Source: a virus
Lineage: Duplodnaviria; Heunggongvirae; Uroviricota; Caudoviricetes
Reading direction: 5' to 3' (one strand)
DNA: 11,071 nucleotides
IMG/VR virus record: IMGVR_UViG_2778261676_000005
Shown in pieces: positions 1 through 11,071 of the stretch. A model generated the notes under the pieces. The model did no database searches. It saw nothing but the letters and a program-made list of their open reading frames with translations, and was not told the DNA's origin. The position numbers and the translations under genes are program-made. Position 1 is the first letter of the stretch. Every line of letters begins with the position of its first letter.

Positions 1-1053
1 TTACGGGGTAATGCCAACCGCTGCCGCCACTTTGTCGCCACTTGGCAGCGTTGCCAGAGGATTGAAACGGAGCGCCGTTTCCAGATGATCCGGTGCCAGA
101 TGAGCGTAACGCATAGTCATTTTTATATCGTGATGTCCGAGGATTTTTTGCAAAGCAAGGATATTTCCACCCGACATCATGAAATGCGCCGCAAACGTAT
201 GGCGCAGAACGTGTGTCAGTTGACCGCGAGGGAGCACGATTGACGTTTTTTCCATCACGGATAAAAATTGAAAATAGCAGTCTGTGAAGAAATTGAACCC
301 ATCAAGCGCCATGATCTCTTCATAAAGCTCTTTACTGATAGGGATGCTTCTGTTTTTCTTCCCCTTCGTTCTTACAAAGGTAATTCGGTATTTAGTCACC
401 TGTGATCGGGTAAGGTTTATTGCTTCTCGCCAGCGTGCGCCTGTGCTTAAGCATATCTTGACTACCAGTGCCAGAATTGGGTCCTGACGTTTGCAATCAG
501 CCAGCAGTTCAACAATCTGCTCATGGGTAAGCCATGCCATCTCTTTTTCTGCGATGGTGAATTTTCGCATGTTCTCCAGTGGGTTTGGATACGACCATTC
601 GCCCAGGCGGGATAGTTCGCTAAAAACACTACTTAGATAGCTTTGCTCCAGGTTAATGGTGACCGGGCTTGCTCCTTTCTTCCATTTCTCGCTGAAGTAG
701 ATCTCACCTGTCAGGCGTTTATCTCGATAGTGGGCAAACATTTTAGAGGTGAGATCGGTTGCAAGGGGATTGCCCAGAGCGTCAACCATCAACAGCAATT
801 TATCATAGACATGCTGCCCAGCGGTTAGAGATTTACCATGTAGTTTGAACCATAGCTCAACCACGTCTTTCAGTGTTCGACGATCCACTGATTCTCCCAG
901 CCAGGGCTTTGCTTCGGTTTCTTCCATCGTATGGCGCTCAAAAGCCAGAGCTTCGCCTTTGGTGGCGAATTGTTTACGCACACGACGCCCACTACGTCCG
1001 GCGGGGTAACATTCGCAAAGCCATTTTCCTGTGGTGAGTTTTCGTACTGCCAT
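1..1053 (-). CDS. int: Tyrosine recombinase / phage integrase, P2-186 family
   Basis: The 376-aa ORF resembles P2 integrase along its length, including the C-terminal catalytic region (..HVLRHTFAAHFMMSGGNILALQKILGH..MTMRYAHL). Start placed at ATG 1053 (MAVRKLTTGKW) because GGAGGG lies 7 nt upstream; the ORF-track start at 1131 is probably an upstream extension. Stop is at 1-3. Confidence 0.9.
   Translation of the reverse strand: MAVRKLTTGKWLCECYPAGRSGRRVRKQFATKGEALAFERHTMEETEAKPWLGESVDRRTLKDVVELWFKLHGKSLTAGQHVYDKLLLMVDALGNPLATDLTSKMFAHYRDKRLTGEIYFSEKWKKGASPVTINLEQSYLSSVFSELSRLGEWSYPNPLENMRKFTIAEKEMAWLTHEQIVELLADCKRQDPILALVVKICLSTGARWREAINLTRSQVTKYRITFVRTKGKKNRSIPISKELYEEIMALDGFNFFTDCYFQFLSVMEKTSIVLPRGQLTHVLRHTFAAHFMMSGGNILALQKILGHHDIKMTMRYAHLAPDHLETALRFNPLATLPSGDKVAAAVGITP
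19..40. repeat. Left copy of 22-bp direct repeat cgctgccgccaYtttgtcgcca; candidate attL core
   Basis: Matches 8217-8238 at 21 of 22 positions (c versus t at position 12). It lies in the last codons of int; the other copy abuts the ogr stop, where P2-type attP is expected. Confidence 0.6.
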
Positions 1054-1239: not shown

Positions 1240-1431
1240 TTATCGCGAGTTTTTAGTACAGATTTTTTTTGATTTACTAATAGTTCCATCATTGCAAACG
1301 AACTTTCCATCGGAGGTACAGTGAGAGACACCTCCCTTTTTCCCAGAACAAGGGTAATTTTTAGCATAGGTAGTTAGTGGGTTTAATAACAAAGAGCATG
1401 ATAAAACCACAAAAAATACCTTACCAAGCAT
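1240..1431 (-). CDS. Small secreted cysteine- and lysine-rich protein (63 aa), function unknown
   Basis: Hydrophobic N-terminus with a likely signal-peptidase site after ..TYA; mature part ~40 aa with 4 Cys. Strong SD (GGGAGGAAA) directly after the cI stop, so probably co-translated with cI. Region is visibly AT-rich. Confidence 0.55.
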
Positions 1432-2912: not shown

Positions 2913-3113
2913 ATGCTGACGAAAGAACCATCATTTGCATCGCTGCTGGTAAAACAAAGTCCGGCAATGCACTACGGTCACGGCTGGATCATGGGTGAGG
3001 ATGGTAAACGCTGGCATCCGTGCCGTTCACAAGATGAATTGCTGGCAGAACTATCTACGAAAAAACGGGGGAACAAATGGCTATTGAAGGCGCTGCGGCG
3101 ACTGTTCCATTAA
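2913..3113 (+). CDS. Small early protein, unknown function (positional equivalent of 186 fil)
   Basis: ATG 2913 preceded by GTGAGGTG; 66 aa; follows cII in the same operon. No motif recognised. Confidence 0.45.
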   Translation: MLTKEPSFASLLVKQSPAMHYGHGWIMGEDGKRWHPCRSQDELLAELSTKKRGNKWLLKALRRLFH

Positions 3114-3946: not shown

Positions 3947-4800
3947 GCACCATCCTGAAATGGGCAGGAAATAAAACCGCCATAATGTCCGAACTGAAAA
4001 AGCATCTTCCTGCTGGCCCGCGACTGGTTGAACCTTTCGCGGGTTCCTGTGCAGTGATGATGGAGACGGATTATCCCAGCTATCTTGTTGCGGATATTAA
4101 TCCTGATTTAATCAACCTCTATAAAAAGGTTGCTGCTGATTGTGAGGCGTTTATATCTCGTGCCAGAGCTTTATTTGAGGAAGCAAACAGGGAGGTGGCT
4201 TATTACAACATAAGGCAGGAGTTTAATTACTCCACTGAAATTACTGATTTCATGAAAGCGGTATATTTCCTGTATCTCAATCGTCACGGTTACCGTGGTT
4301 TATGTCGCTATAACAAGAGCGGGAATTTCAACATTCCCTACGGTAATTATAAAAATCCGTATTTCCCTGAAAAAGAAATTCGCGCATTTGCAGAAAAAGC
4401 CCAGCGAGCAACGTTTATCTGCGCCAGCTTTGATGAAACGCTGGCGATGTTGAAGGCGGGGGATGTGGTGTATTGCGATCCGCCGTATGACGGTACGTTT
4501 TCCGGCTATCACACTGATGGTTTCACTGAAGATGACCAGTATCACCTGGCATCCGTTCTTGAACATCGGTCATCAGAAGGACATCCGGTCATTGTTTCTA
4601 ACAGTGACACATCCCTGATCCGTTCGTTGTATCGCAATTTCACCCACCACTACATCAAAGCAAAACGCAGCATCGGTGTGGCAGCTGGCGAGGGTAAATC
4701 AGCAACAGAAATCATTGCTGTTTCCGGGCCGCGCTGCTGGGTGGGATTTGATTATTCGCGTGGCGTGGACAGTTCTGCCGTGTACGGAGTACGTGCATGA
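3943..4800 (+). CDS. dam: DNA adenine methyltransferase, Dam-like (N6-adenine class)
   Basis: N-terminus [11 protein letters not shown] and motif FAGSCAV, plus the catalytic DPPY motif ([11 protein letters not shown]). ATG 3943 follows GGAGG; the longer track ORF from 3883 is an upstream extension. Confidence 0.85.
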
Positions 4801-6359
4801 GTCATGCCGATATGAACAACTGCTGCGGCTTTAACGAGTCTGCCGCAGCATTCTCATGGAACAGCCCGAAAAAGGCCATTAACCCTTATCTGGACCCGGC
4901 GGAAGTTGCGCCGGTTTCTGCGCTTTCAAACCTGATCACTCTGTACGCTGCCGATAACGAGCAGGAACAACTGCGCCGCGAGGCACTGAGTGATCAGGTC
5001 TGGGAGCGTTATTTCTTTAATGAATCCCGTGATCCTGTCCAGCGCGAAATGGAGCAGGATAAGCTAATTAGCCGGGCAAAGCTGGCGCATGAGCAGCAGC
5101 GTTTTAATCCGGACATGGTCATTCTGGCGGATGTCAACGCCCAGCCTTCCCATATCAGCAAGCCGCTGATGCAACGTATTGAATACTTCAGCAGCCTGGG
5201 CAGGCCAAAGGCTTATTCCCGCTATTTACGTGAGACGATTAAGCCATGTCTGGAACGACTGGAGCATGTACGCGACAGTCAGCTATCTGCATCTTTTCGC
5301 TTTATGGCAAGCCATGAAGGGCTGGACGGCCTGCTGATCTTGCCTGAAATGAGTCAGGATCAGGTGAAACGCCTGTCCACCCTGGTAGCTGCGCATATGA
5401 GTATGTGCCTTGATGCAGCTTGTGGTGATTTGTATGCCACCGATGACGTTAAGCCAGAAGAAATCCGCAAGACATGGGAAAGGGTGGCAGCAGAAACCCT
5501 GCGACTGGATGTCATCCCACCTGCGTTTGAGCAACTCCGCCGGAAAAGAAACCGCCGTAAACCCGTGCCCTATGAACTCATTCCGGGTTCGCTGGCGCGT
5601 ATGTTGTGCGCCGACTGGTGGTATCGGAAATTATGGAAGATGCGTTGCGAATGGCGGGAAGAGCAGTTGCGCGCTGTCTGCCTGGTCAGCAAAAAAGCAT
5701 CTCCCTATGTCAGCTATGAAGCTGTGATGCATAAACGTGAGCAGCGCCGTAAGTCGCTGGAGTTTTTTCGTTCTCATGAACTGGTGAACGAAGATGGCGA
5801 CACGCTGGATATGGAAGACGTGGTAAACGCCAGCAGCAGCAACCCTGCGCATCGCCGCAATGAGATGATGGCCTGTGTTAAAGGTCTGGAGCTTATCGCG
5901 GAAATGCGCGGTGACTGCGCCGTTTTCTACACCATCACCTGTCCGTCACGTTTCCATTCCACGCTAAATAACGGCAGGCCCAACCCGACTTGGACAAATG
6001 CGACGGTAAGACAAAGCAGTGATTATCTGGTCGGCATGTTTGCTGCATTTCGTAAGGCGATGTACAAAGCCGGATTGCGCTGGTATGGCGTGCGGGTGGC
6101 TGAGCCGCATCATGACGGTACAGTTCACTGGCACCTGTTGTGTTTTATGCGCAAAAAAGATCGCCGCGCCATTACTGCTTTGTTGCGTAAGTTTGCCATT
6201 CGTGAAGACCGTGAGGAGCTGGGTAATAACACAGGACCACGCTTTAAGTCTGAGCTGATACCGGGGAAGTGCAGGCCGTGGAGCTTGTGGTGCGTGGACG
6301 TCACAAAGAAGTGGATTCCGGCGAGTGGAAGACGGGCGAAAGCAACACCACCAAAGTGA
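4797..6359 (+). pseudogene. A: Replication initiation protein gpA (rolling-circle HUH endonuclease), 3'-truncated
   Basis: Resembles P2 gpA through the HUH motif ([16 protein letters not shown]). The ORF then ends after a short tail that is the out-of-frame reading of the tail-tube-like fragment. At 520 aa it is short of the ~760 aa I recall for P2 gpA. Confidence 0.7.
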
Positions 6360-6490
6360 CCAGTACCAACAGCTACGCGAAGCTGACCATCAATGGTGAG
6401 GTGCTCTATGAACTGGACCTTATCAACATGGTGGAAATTGTGGACGGTGTGGACCTGATGGAAGCGCACCGCAACGCCCTCGGCCTCTGA
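6263..6490 (+). pseudogene. C-terminal fragment of a tail tube (gpFII-like) gene lacking its 5' part
   Basis: Frame-2 translation ..[69 protein letters not shown] resembles tail-tube C-termini and sits directly upstream of E, where FII lies in P2. No plausible start or N-terminal region. Confidence 0.45.
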
Positions 6491-6544
6491 TGTATCTGAA
6501 CGGCGCGGGATACCGCGCCAGAACCCAATTTACAGGACAACAAA

Positions 6545-6847
6545 ATGAGCGATAAGCAGACTGAAAAGACCATTCAACTGGATACCCCCATCATGCGCGG
6601 TAAAACAGAAATTACCGAAATTGTGTTGCGTAAACCGCAGTCTGGTGCGCTGCGCGGCACACGCCTGCAGGCCATTATGGATATGGATGTGAACGCGATG
6701 ATGACCGTGATCCCCCGCATCTCCAGTCCGGCACTGACTGCACAGGAAATCGCAGAGATGGACCCGGCAGATCTCACCGCTATGTCGGTTGAGGTTGTCA
6801 CTTTTTTGTTGAAGAAGTCGGTGCTTGCCGGTTTACCGACAGCCTGA
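6545..6847 (+). CDS. E: Tail assembly chaperone gpE
   Basis: 100-aa protein with gpE-like sequence (TIQLDTPIMRGKTEITEIVLRKPQSGALRG); slippery heptamer TTTTTTG near the 3' end; immediately upstream of the tape-measure start. Confidence 0.75.
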   Translation: MSDKQTEKTIQLDTPIMRGKTEITEIVLRKPQSGALRGTRLQAIMDMDVNAMMTVIPRISSPALTAQEIAEMDPADLTAMSVEVVTFLLKKSVLAGLPTA

Positions 6848-6981
6848 CGGTTGACGATCTGGTGGCAGATATCGCCACCATTTTTCACTGGCCGCCATCC
6901 GTTACTGACGTTATGCCGCTGACCGAAGTGCTGGAATGGCGGTATAAAGCGATTCAGAGATGCGGGGCCAACGATGAGTGA
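6545..6981 (+). CDS. gpE+E' frameshift fusion (programmed -1 frameshift, P2 E/E' and lambda G/GT type)
   Basis: From T TTT TTG at 6802-6808 the -1 frame is open to TGA at 6979-6981, reading ..GACRFTDSLTVDDLVADIATIFHWPPSVTDVMPLTEVLEWRYKAIQRCGANDE. It ends overlapping the T start at 6974, as in P2. Confidence 0.6.
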
Positions 6982-7549
6982 TAACAACCTGCGCCTGCAG
7001 GTCATTCTTAATGCGGTTGACAAACTCACCCGCCCATTCCGTGCTGCACAGGCCAGTTCGAAAGAGCTGGCTGGCGCAATCAGAAACTCCCGTGACGCAT
7101 TAAAGCAACTCAATCAGGCGGGTAACAGCCTGGAAAAATTTCGCAAGCTGCAGGCTGATAACAAGAAGTTAGGCGACAGGCTGAACTATGCCAGACAGAA
7201 GGCTAATTTGCTTAGCTCTGAGCTGGAGGCGATGGAGCAACCATCACAAAGGCATTTTGTGGCTTTAGGTCGGCAAACGCTGGCAGTCCAACGCCTGGAA
7301 GAACAACAAAAATATTTGCAGAAGCAAACGGCGCTTGTGCGTGCTGAACTGTACCGGGCGGGAATTTCTGCGAAAGATGATGCGGGAGCAACTGCCCGTT
7401 TAGCCCGTGAAACATCACGTTATAACCAGGAACTTTCGAAACAGGAGGCGCGGCTGAAGCGACTGGGGGAAGCTCAGCGCAGGATGAATGCAGCGCGTGC
7501 CAGTTACCCGCGAACCCGCGAAGAAAGAAAGCACTACGGTGAAGCGTAA
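6974..7549 (+). pseudogene. T: Tail tape measure protein gpT, N-terminal fragment (~170 aa of an expected ~800)
   Basis: N-terminus MSDNNLRLQVILNAVDKLTRPF with coiled-coil sequence is typical of P2-family tape measure proteins. The ORF ends after 191 aa and overlaps the gpD-fragment frame. Confidence 0.7.
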
Positions 7550-7907
7550 GCGCAGGACTAAGAAGCAGAAGAAAGAGCCGGAAGCGAAGCAGGGCGATTA
7601 CCTGGTGGGGACGGATGAAAACGTGCTGGTACTTAATCGCACTTATGCCAACCGGAGCAACGCCGAACGAGCGGCAAAAATGCAGTGGGAACGCCTGCAA
7701 CGCGGCGTTGCGTCATTCTCGCTACAACTGGCGGAAGGGCGGGCAGATCTCTACACGGAAATGCCAGTGAAAGTCAGTGGCTTTAAACAGCCGATAGATG
7801 ATGCGGAATGGACCATTACGACTCTGACACATACTGTCAGCCCGGATAACGGTTTTACAACCAGTATTGAACTCGAAGTGAAGATTGATGATTTCGAAAT
7901 GGAATGA
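7488..7907 (+). pseudogene. D: Tail protein gpD, C-terminal fragment
   Basis: ..YANRSNAERAAKMQWERLQRGVASFSLQLAEGRADLYTEMPVKVSGFKQPIDDAEWTITTLTHTVSPDNGFTTSIELEVK matches the C-terminal ~120 aa of P2 gpD. No N-terminal two thirds and no gpU gene. Sits directly upstream of ogr as in P2. Confidence 0.8.
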
Positions 7908-7997
7908 TTCTTCGCAATGGAGAACTTTTAAGTTTGCAAAATGGAATAATAAGGTATCATTATTGTGAATTTAGCAAAAATGGGGAGAACTCGAAAA

Positions 7998-8216
7998 ATG
8001 ATGATTTGCCCACTGTGTGGAAGTGCCGCCCATACTCGCAGCAGTTTTCAGGTATCTTCATTGACCAAAGAGCGTTACAACCAGTGCCAGAACATTAACT
8101 GCAGCCATACTTTTGTTACCCATGAAACTTTTGTTCGTTCGATTGCAACGCCAAAAGAGTCAAATCCGGTTCAGCCGCATCCAATGAAATCAGGACAGGT
8201 GGCGCTCTCTCTTTGA
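7998..8216 (+). CDS. ogr: Late gene transcription activator Ogr (zinc finger)
   Basis: MMICPLCGSAAHTRSS...ERYNQCQNINCSHTF...PHPMKSGQ resembles P2 Ogr (Cys4 finger); 72 aa from ATG 7998, as in P2. GGGGAGAA upstream. Confidence 0.9.
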   Translation: MMICPLCGSAAHTRSSFQVSSLTKERYNQCQNINCSHTFVTHETFVRSIATPKESNPVQPHPMKSGQVALSL

Positions 8217-8238
8217 CGCTGCCGCCATTTTGTCGCCA
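8217..8238. repeat. Right copy of the 22-bp direct repeat; candidate attR core
   Basis: cgctgccgccattttgtcgcca starts on the nucleotide after the ogr stop and matches 19-40 with one mismatch. Confidence 0.6.
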
Positions 8239-8296
8239 TCGTTAAAAAGCAGTGCTTCTAACATCATGATTTTAAAAGGCATAAATTTCAGACAAC

Positions 8297-8339
8297 AAAA
8301 AACCCATCAACCTTGAACCGAAATGGCGGGGTTGATGGG
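8297..8339 (-). terminator. Candidate intrinsic terminator for ybjL (read on the minus strand)
   Basis: Perfect 10-bp arms CCCATCAACC (8303-8312) and GGTTGATGGG (8330-8339), with an inner CCG/CGG pair, followed on the minus strand by a U-run (plus-strand A-run 8297-8302). About 110 nt downstream of the ybjL stop, and the loop is large, so confidence is modest. Confidence 0.35.
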
Positions 8340-8451
8340 CTCCACAAAATGGGGACATCAAAGAAAAGCAGTGGCACTAATTAAGACTGATGCCCTGCGG
8401 AAAAGTTCTGCGGTTGTGCAAAAAAATTTCATTTTCAGGGCAACTTCAGTT

Positions 8452-10137
8452 TTATCCTAATCCTGGCCATACCATGACGATGATTGTCCCTGCCAGCGTC
8501 AGCAGGACGTTGGCGATTGCATAGGTGCCCGCATAGCCCAGCGCCGGGATGTTACTGCGAGCTGTATCACTGATGATCTCCATTGCCGGCGCGCAGGTAC
8601 GTGCGCCCATCATTGCGCCGAACAACAGCGCGCGGTTCATTCGCAATACATAAGCACCGAACAAGAAACAGATAACCACGGGCACCAGACTGACAATCAA
8701 TCCGGCAATCAACATCTGACCGCCAATCGCGCCCAGGCCGTTATTAATACCGCTACCGGCGCTCAGACCAACGCCTGCCATAAACACCATCAAGCCGAAC
8801 TCTTTCACCATGCTTAATGCACCCTGCGGAATGTAACCGAAGGTCGGGTGGTTAGCACGCATAAAGCCCAGCATAATTCCGGCGAATAACAACCCGGCAG
8901 CGTTCCCCATGCCGAAACTGAATGTGCTGAACTGGAAGGTGATCATCCCGATCATCAGCCCAATAACAAAGAAGGCGCAGAATGCCAGCAGGTCAGTGAC
9001 CTGGCTGTGAATCGAGATAAAGCCGATGCGATCGGCGATGGTTTTTACGCGGCGGGCATCGCCGCTGACTTGTAAAACGTCACCTTTGTTAAGCACGACG
9101 TTGTCATCTATCGGCATCTCAATCTGGCTACGAATGACGCGGTTAAGGAAGCAACCGTGATCGGTCAACTTCAGTTGTGCGAGACGTTTACCTACAGCGT
9201 TATGGTTTTTAACGACCACTTCTTCAGTGACGATACGCATGTCGAGAAGGTCACGATCGAAAACTTCTTTACCGTTACGGAAGCTGGGATCGAGTCGGGC
9301 ATGGGCGTCGGGATAGCCTACCAACGCTATTTCATCGCCCATTTGTAGCACGGCATCACCGTCTGGATTTGCCAGAATCCCGTTACGTCGAATACGTTCA
9401 ATGTAGCAGCCGGTTTGTCGATAAATACCCAGTTCACGCAGATTTTTGCCGTCGGTCCAGGCCACCAGTTCCGGGCCGACGCGATAGGCGCGGATCACCG
9501 GTAAATAAACCTTACGGTTGGCATCAGTGTCCAGGCCACGTTCGCGGGCGATTTGCTGGGCGCTGGTCTGTAAGTCCTGATGCTGCAATTTCGGCAAGTA
9601 ACGCGCACCAACAATCAAACTCACCAGACCGATTAAATAGGTTAAGGCATACCCGAGGCTCAGATTATCCAGTGCCAGTGAGAGCTGCCTGCTTTCCATG
9701 CCGGAATGACGCAGTGTATCGCCAGCACCGACCAGAACCGGTGTCGACGTCATAGAGCCTGCTAACATACCGGCCGTCAGGCCAATATCCCAGCCAAACA
9801 GCTTACCTAACCCTAAGGCGATCACCAGCGCACTGCCAACCATCACCAGTGCTAACATTAGGTAATTTTTCCCATCGCGAAAAAAAATGGAAAAAAAGTT
9901 CGGTCCGGCTTCGACCCCGACGCAGAAAATAAACAGCATAAAGCCAAGATTAAGCGCATCGGTGTTAATGCTGAAATGTTGTTGGCCTAATAACAGCGAT
10001 ACGACTAAAACGCCAATGGAATTACCCAGTTGGATCGAACCAAGTCGTAACTTTCCGAGACATAGCCCAAGCGCGAGGACCACAAATAATAACAGAATGT
10101 AATTCCCATTTAACAATTCGGCGACGTTTATATTCAC
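8452..10137 (-). CDS. ybjL: Putative transport protein YbjL (AAE family)
   Basis: 561-aa polytopic membrane protein; N-terminus [33 protein letters not shown] and length match E. coli YbjL as I recall it. Confidence 0.9.
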
Positions 10138-10406
10138 GGAGGCTAACTTCTTGTTTACTAGTAAGCTGTTGAAAGAAATGGTAATTTACGATAATGTTTT
10201 TTACCAGAATTCAGGGCGCAGATTCATTCAGCGCACCTAAACGATAGTAAAGTAACAATATATTTTACTAGTGTAATCACATTAGGTATCAACGGCTATA
10301 TGAATTGCGTTGGCCTATATTAGCATGGAATGCGAAGCGGCTTTATCTTACTGAACGCCACACTGGCGAAAAATGTGTTCGATAGACGCAGTGTCAGGAG
10401 GAACGA

Positions 10407-10784
10407 GTGAAACATAAACAACGTTGGGCGGGGGCAATCTGCTGTTTTGTCCTCTTCATTGTGGTGTGCCTTTTTCTGGCGACGCACATGAAAGGCGCTT
10501 TTCGGGCTGCCGGGCATCCTGAAATCGGCTTGCTATTTTTCATTCTTCCTGGAGCAGTCGCCAGCTTCTTTTCACAGCGTAGAGAAGTCCTGAAACCTCT
10601 GTTTGGCGCAATGCTGGCGGCACCCTGTTCGATGCTCATTATGCGGCTGTTTTTTTCACCGACGCGCTCATTCTGGCAAGAGCTGGCATGGTTACTAAGC
10701 GCGGTGTTCTGGTGTGCGCTGGGGGCACTGTGTTTCTTATTTATCAGTAGTTTGTTTAAACCACAGCACAGAAAAAATCAGTAA
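10407..10784 (+). CDS. ybjM: Inner membrane protein YbjM
   Basis: 125-aa hydrophobic protein divergent from ybjL and convergent with grxA, as in the E. coli K-12 ybjL-ybjM-grxA locus. Confidence 0.8.
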   Translation: MKHKQRWAGAICCFVLFIVVCLFLATHMKGAFRAAGHPEIGLLFFILPGAVASFFSQRREVLKPLFGAMLAAPCSMLIMRLFFSPTRSFWQELAWLLSAVFWCALGALCFLFISSLFKPQHRKNQ

Positions 10785-10804
10785 AGCCCTCAACGCGAGG
10801 GCTT
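10771..10804. terminator. Hairpin between convergent ybjM and grxA; likely grxA intrinsic terminator
   Basis: 8-bp stem AAGCCCTC / GAGGGCTT with loop aacgc at 10784-10804, 10 nt after the grxA stop. A T-rich run follows on the minus strand; no T-run on the plus strand. Confidence 0.5.
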
Positions 10805-10813
10805 GTCAGACGA

Positions 10814-11071
10814 TCAGGCGTCCAGATTTTCTTTCACCCATGCAGCAAAATCGGTATAGCCGCCGATATGTTGCTGATCGACAAAAATCTGCGGCACGGT
10901 TTCTACGGGTTTACCTGCCTTTTGTTGTAGATCTTCTTTAGTGATCCCTTCCGCACGAATATCTACATACTGATACTGAAAATCATCGCGTTCATTGCTC
11001 AATTTCTCAGCCAGATCTTTTGCACGCACACAGTAAGGGCAACCCGAACGACCAAAAATAACGGTTTGCAT
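10814..11071 (-). CDS. grxA: Glutaredoxin 1
   Basis: 85 aa with CPYC active site (MQTVIFGRSGCPYCVRAKDLAEKL...); matches E. coli GrxA as I recall it. Start codon is at the window edge (11069-11071). Confidence 0.9.
   Translation of the reverse strand: MQTVIFGRSGCPYCVRAKDLAEKLSNERDDFQYQYVDIRAEGITKEDLQQKAGKPVETVPQIFVDQQHIGGYTDFAAWVKENLDA

Follow-up and report, generated by a model that had tools for sequence, protein, structure and literature searches.

A very probable deletion scar joins the start of T to the end of D in a defective P2/186-like prophage of Escherichia coli

Phage P2 carries its tail genes in an operon ordered FI-FII-E-E′-T-U-D-ogr (AF063097), with a T6G frameshift cassette in E/E′. 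A small part of such an operon survives in the cryptic prophage PR-X of E. coli K-12 (the pseudogene yegZ and ogrK, b2083/b2082), a 629-bp end-stage remnant near cyaR/yegR in which a C-terminal gpD fragment lies directly upstream of an intact ogr and all else has been lost. For a P2-like prophage at ybjL our literature search found no paper. Five other genomes, FORC_082, S43, ACN002/APEC O78, L9 and 730V1, carry remnants at the same site as the element described here. They share its gene order (int-CI-Apl-CII-Fil-...-Dam-A...D-ogr) and are 99.2–100% identical to it from D′ through grxA. A′, FII′, T′ and D′ denote the truncated genes in the following.

The window, by which we mean the whole stretch of 11,071 bp that was analysed, is identical to positions 3028–14098 of contig NONG01000007.1 (L006) from the draft E. 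coli assembly GCA_002518955.1. Its left edge is the stop codon of a phage integrase gene and its right edge lies inside grxA. Gene calls and Pfam matches give the prophage order as int, a small YdcA-family ORF, a 186-type CI repressor, an Apl/Cox-sized ORF, CII (Phage_CP76), Fil, DUF5347, DUF2732, a TraR/DksA zinc-finger protein, Dam methylase, a truncated gpA, a tail-tube fragment, gpE, E′, the ORFs 6974–7549 and 7488–7907, and ogr. The host genes ybjL, ybjM and grxA follow to the right of ogr. The features that mark the ends of the element are:

1–1053, minus strand: integrase gene int
7998–8216, plus strand: ogr, the late-gene activator, intact, 72 aa (PF04606, E 7e-22)
8294–8307, no strand: attR core AACAAAAAACCCAT, the longest word common to the rcdA-int and ogr-ybjL spacers of L006

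The attL copy of this 14-bp direct repeat is found at 2940–2953 of L006, 75–88 bp beyond the left end of the window. The two att copies bound the element, with int at one end and ogr at the other; prophage-only genes are absent beyond them, and chromosomal synteny from rcdA-int through ogr-ybjL-ybjM-grxA is undisturbed. The element is a P2/186-like prophage remnant integrated between rcdA and ybjL.

Two further observations concern the site and the left part of the element. On the ybjL strand, a strong hairpin (8294–8344, minus strand; −23.3 kcal/mol, z = −3.1) shares its U-tract and the base of its stem with the attR core. This hairpin looks like the intrinsic terminator of ybjL, and the phage attachment site appears to sit on a host terminator that is rebuilt by the att repeat. 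Between int and the CI repressor lies a 63-aa ORF of the YdcA family (1240–1431, minus strand; PF27300) in a low-GC patch (35–37% versus about 50% elsewhere). The encoded protein contains several cysteines and is hydrophobic at its N-terminus. The ORF may be moron-type cargo; S43 has another, larger gene in this slot.

The window is collinear with the P2 tail operon, and the E/E′ T6G cassette is present in both. The retained pieces are 52% (FII, P2 residues 96–172), 43% (E), 31% (T), 56% (D) and 51% (Ogr, P2 residues 1–72) identical to their P2 counterparts. Compared with P2, the window has lost FI and U entirely and FII, T and D for the most part. Its early region is 186-like and not P2-like, as judged by the CI repressor (PF07022/PF16452), CII (PF06892) and Fil, and T is 1025 aa long in the window's lineage versus 815 aa in P2. 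The integrase, the CI/Apl/CII immunity region, Dam, E/E′ and ogr are retained. Truncation has affected A, FII, T and D, U is missing, and genes for portal, terminase, capsid, lysis, baseplate, fibre or sheath do not appear in the ORF and Pfam lists of the window. The element cannot build a virion and presumably cannot replicate.

Among the known cases PR-X is the closest, and the right end of the window element resembles its own. YegZ aligns to window 7707–7904 with 61% amino-acid identity and OgrK to 7998–8213 with 51%. The window element is considerably larger (about 8.3 kb) and, unlike PR-X, keeps int, CI, the Apl-like ORF, CII, Fil, Dam, A′, FII′, E/E′ and T′; its D stub is 133 aa versus 72 aa in K-12. 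It represents an earlier stage of PR-X-type decay, at a different site.

In the initial annotation the region 6974–7907 was described as a tape-measure-like N-terminus of ~170 aa that runs into a gpD-like C-terminus in a different frame, with a junction near 7490–7560. The features that we find in this region are:

6974–7506, plus strand: 5′ fragment of the tape-measure gene T, codons 1–178 of 1025; 99.66% identical to FORC_082 T
7505–7506, no strand: junction 2 (T′/D′), with 2-bp microhomology TA and 3,723 bp deleted, from alignments against L001 and L005
7506–7907, plus strand: 3′ fragment of the tail/baseplate-hub gene D, codons 234–366 plus stop
7507–7549, plus strand: end of the T′ ORF, which runs out of frame through 13 codons of D and meets TAA at 7547–7549

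Searches with tblastn agree with that description. The FORC_082 tape-measure protein (1025 aa) matched through residues 1–185 only, at window 6974–7528 (96.8%, E 3e-113), and FORC_082 gpD (366 aa) through residues 234–366 only, at 7506–7904 (98.5%, E 2e-89). The proposed alignment to P2 T, U and D likewise identified T and D homologues: P2 T residues 3–182 match 6983–7522 (E 2e-17) and P2 D residues 275–382 match 7578–7904 (E 2e-38), at the identities given above. Chance similarity would fall far short of these values. The junction, at 7505/7506, falls inside the predicted bracket; the T stub is real, although its native part is 178 residues long and not ~170. The gpU proteins of P2 and FORC_082 gave no match in window 6200–8300 at E ≤ 1e-3. 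The loss of gpU thus holds as annotated, and the deletion extends further, taking also 83% of T (847 codons) and 64% of D.

T′ is homologous to P2-family gpT and correctly placed after E/E′, but D′ follows it instead of U, and it is far from a full-length gene (815–1025 aa, before U). Pfam gave no significant match on the T′ stub; a sub-threshold hit to CagE_TrbE_VirB (16.6 bits versus a 21-bit cut-off) was treated as a chance match. D′ is homologous to gpD (PF05954, late control protein D, VgrG-like). Its Phage_GPD score lies just under the gathering score (30.0 versus 30.1 bits, E 3.9e-7) because only profile positions 214–302 of 305 remain. It is not a complete gpD domain with its own start codon, as the first 233 of 366 codons are gone.

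The two ORFs, 6974–7549 (191 aa) and 7488–7907 (139 aa), do not share a reading frame: position 6974, where T starts, leaves 2 on division by 3, and position 7506, from which the D fragment is read, leaves 0. In the intact operon of P2-like phages the D frame is +1 relative to T, which is why the join is out of frame despite the deletion being a multiple of three. Codon 178 of T, which is split by the junction, stays Tyr by coincidence. The only in-frame starts for D′ are the ATG at 7488 and the GTG at 7497, both in T-derived sequence, and these are the starts that gene callers use. T′ and D′ are pseudogene fragments without tail-building capacity.

The best reference for the deleted segment is FORC_082, whose remnant at the same chromosomal site has T, U and D intact and thereby displays the ancestral arrangement. 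Window 6918–7506 corresponds to 19613–20201 of the FORC_082 locus (L005) with 99.66% nucleotide identity, and window 7505–11071 to 23923–27489 with 99.33%. The 3,723 bp missing in between comprise T codons 179–1025, all of U and D codons 1–233. With three independent references the T-side nucleotide alignment stops at 7506 and the D-side alignment begins at 7505; the P2-like element of CP019275.1 (L001) gives these same endpoints. Over its last 201 bp, T′ matches the intact T of many E. coli genomes at 100% identity. On the other side, the segment of 730V1 with intact U and D agrees with the window at 100% identity over its last 956 bp, from the D 3′ end through ogr and past it.

CP019275.1 was deposited as a 37-kb "plasmid" and is included in a phage collection (positions 14688–19250 are concerned here). 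It carries the chromosomal genes ssrA, smpB, bamE and recN beside the end of the P2-like prophage and gives the impression of a piece of chromosome, or of a prophage excised together with some flank, rather than of a genuine plasmid.

We conclude with high confidence that window 6974–7907 is a deletion scar in a defective P2/186-like prophage, with the start of T joined to the end of D and U lost. No observation speaks against a deletion. A single illegitimate (homology-independent) recombination event, of unspecified type, would have cut 3,723 bp from the tail operon and joined T codon 178 to D codon 233/234. The T stub ends after 13 foreign codons and the D stub is left without its own start. 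Short direct repeats, which the initial annotation suggested looking for at the junction, did not turn up: only TA is common to both parental sequences. By our own calculation, P(m)=(m+1)(1/4)^m(3/4)^2, microhomology of at least 2 bp is expected in about 16% of random joins and of at least 3 bp, as at junction 1 described below, in about 5%. The 2-bp TA is within chance, so it gives no evidence of a repeat-mediated mechanism or of slippage.

A second scar of this kind, to which the initial annotation had also pointed as another internal deletion, lies 1.25 kb upstream of the T′/D′ scar. The features around it are:

4797–6259, plus strand: 5′ fragment of the replication endonuclease gene A, codons 1–488 of about 804
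6257–6259, no strand: junction 1 (A′/FII′), with 3-bp microhomology GAT, from a three-way alignment
6257–6490, plus strand: 3′ fragment of the tail tube gene FII, codons 95–171 plus stop
6545–6981, plus strand: tail assembly chaperone genes, E (6545–6847) and E+E′ (PF10109, E 2e-18; PF06528 Phage_P2_GpE on E′)

A′ matches PF05840 Phage_GPA over profile positions 1–299 of 321 (E 4e-113). Homology to the intact gpA of FORC_082 stops at window 6259, which equals L005 7973 and codon 488, and the ORF continues out of frame into FII sequence up to a stop at 6359. FII′ matches PF04985 Phage_tube over profile positions 95–165 of 165 (E 4e-26), and its region is 97.7% identical in nucleotides to CP019275.1 from position 9001. 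Thus, codon 488 of 804 in A is joined out of frame to codon 95 of 171 in FII, and the deletion is real. The late promoter upstream of FI has been deleted in the window. The T6G slippery site of E/E′ is at 6802–6808, both frames are open in translation, and the −1 frame remains open to 6981. E and E+E′ look intact yet orphaned, as every gene they could serve is broken or gone.

The two scars had been taken to mean stepwise, independent deletions. Both scars are there and both are out of frame. No genome with one deletion was found when each junction was probed separately in 5,426 complete E. coli genomes, and the reading as two separate events therefore rests on parsimony. That the deletions were stepwise and independent is an inference, as regards both their order and their separateness in time. 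The undeleted ancestor would be a composite, because FORC_082 lacks FII/E, 730V1 lacks the T 5′ end, and no single reference genome has all the parts.

The rcdA/ybjL site holds six different deletion architectures of one prophage, that of the window and the following five:

ACN002/APEC O78: a portal fragment runs into the T 3′ end; complete U and D
L9: gpA′ fused directly to a longer D′ stub
S43: a terminase fragment runs into E′; complete T-U-D
FORC_082: sheath fragment, then intact T-U-D
730V1: IS5 and IS1 insertions; gpA′ joined to baseplate J; tail-fibre fragment joined to the T 3′ end; U and D intact

Neither junction of the window is found in any of these five. The six architectures argue for decay rather than a purpose-built minimal element, as the initial annotation had held. 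They point to a single prophage family that has eroded at this site lineage by lineage, and not to a minimal element kept by conservation.

The same-site remnants also differ in their accessory genes. Between dam and A, ACN002 has an extra 822-bp hypothetical gene that is absent from the window (window 4718–4914 versus L002 5718–6699). Between gpA and the portal gene the other remnants hold varied apparent anti-phage cargo (L002 9958–11306; L004 9707–11968; L005 9989–13238 and 15021–15821), a variable slot that has been removed in the window by the A′/FII′ deletion. The cargo of FORC_082 includes a retron-type reverse transcriptase, an AAA ATPase and a PtuB HNH nuclease. TIR-domain proteins occur in the cargo of ACN002, S43 and FORC_082, and feature names indicate KAP NTPase and PIN proteins in that of further genomes.

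At the right end of the element, ogr is nearly invariant among the same-site remnants. Over the compared region (window 7505–8460), the window and L002–L005 differ at 0–1 positions in the 219 bp of ogr and at 2–6 of 244 bp in the ogr-ybjL spacer. In the D stub 12–21 of 403 bp differ, mostly synonymously, with 2–3 amino-acid changes. The invariance of ogr as against the divergence of D′ may stem from a mosaic recombination boundary, or ogr may be under stronger constraint. A promoter scan found a promoter-like site upstream of ogr at 7933–7960, and the P2 ogr promoter sits in the equivalent D-ogr spacer. A gpD 3′ stub followed by an intact ogr is seen in the window, in L9 and in PR-X of K-12, and together with the invariance of ogr this pattern could be read as host selection for a domesticated Ogr and its promoter context at the D end, instead of neutral decay bounded by a host gene. 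We consider such selection improbable.

An assembly or sequencing artefact, in which T, U and D would really be intact and the contig would have collapsed 3.7 kb or contain a frameshift error, is very unlikely. In favour of an artefact, the source is a draft assembly, and none of the 5,426 complete E. coli genomes spans a 400-bp probe centred on junction 2; the same holds for junction 1. Each half of the junction 2 probe is 100% identical in many genomes, never contiguously and always ending exactly at the junction positions, and comparison of the halves with intact T or D reveals no mutation that postdates the deletion within 200 bp of the scar. An exact 42-mer across junction 2 has no match in the GTDB species-representative genomes, where E. 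coli has one representative only, so that this absence says little. The exact chimeric 191-aa T′ ORF does occur on 3 contigs, and only these, of a very large assembly collection, and the contig shown is listed with 2 samples; such recurrence speaks against an isolated assembly error. Moreover, the breakpoints have only 2 bp in common, so there is no repeat to drive a collapse, and the same contig has the similar scar at junction 1. A sequencing frameshift in one intact gene, which the initial annotation named as a way in which its reading could fail, was rejected since 3,723 bp are missing relative to the same-site T-U-D and no frameshift error can remove them; nor is its other such way borne out, the fragments being clear T and D homologues.

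The join could also have arisen by illegitimate recombination between two P2-like prophages, with T from one and D from the other. The two sides of the junction are indeed unequally similar to some relatives: CP019275.1 matches the T side at 97.7% and the D side at 85.6%, S43 the T side at 86.7% and the D side at 99.5%. These values show mosaicism of the T and D alleles across P2-like phages. Such a chimera was rejected once FORC_082 showed both alleles, at the identities given above, within one normal T-U-D block at the same site, so that a simple internal deletion suffices to explain the join. The undisturbed synteny from rcdA to grxA, which such an exchange would normally break, likewise makes this origin of the join hardly credible.

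That T′/D′ is instead retained and functional, as a +1 frameshift fusion or as an expressed gpD C-terminal domain selected alongside ogr, is extremely unlikely: the gpD stub with intact ogr recurs independently in the window, in L9 (gpA′-D′) and in K-12 (yegZ-ogrK), and the ATG at 7488 opens the 139-aa ORF, but the 5′ ends of the stubs differ (D residue 234 in the window, about 116 in L9, the last 72 aa in K-12), which fits random deletion endpoints bounded on the right and not a conserved domain boundary, the late promoter upstream of FI is gone, no slippery motif was identified between 7506 and 7549, and the D′ differences from other alleles are mostly synonymous. These differences predate the deletion, because D′ is identical to the intact D of 730V1. 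Nothing supports a functional D′ product.

Taken together, the deletion scar at 6974–7907 is a case of ordinary prophage decay, and deletion-driven decay is already well documented. The finding matters little beyond annotation: the ORFs 6974–7549 and 7488–7907 should be annotated as pseudogene fragments of T and D, not as hypothetical or VgrG-like proteins, and for the element as a whole the appropriate class is that of a non-inducible remnant. At rcdA/ybjL there is a small natural series of independently eroded copies of one prophage, which could be used as a worked example of deletion-driven decay.
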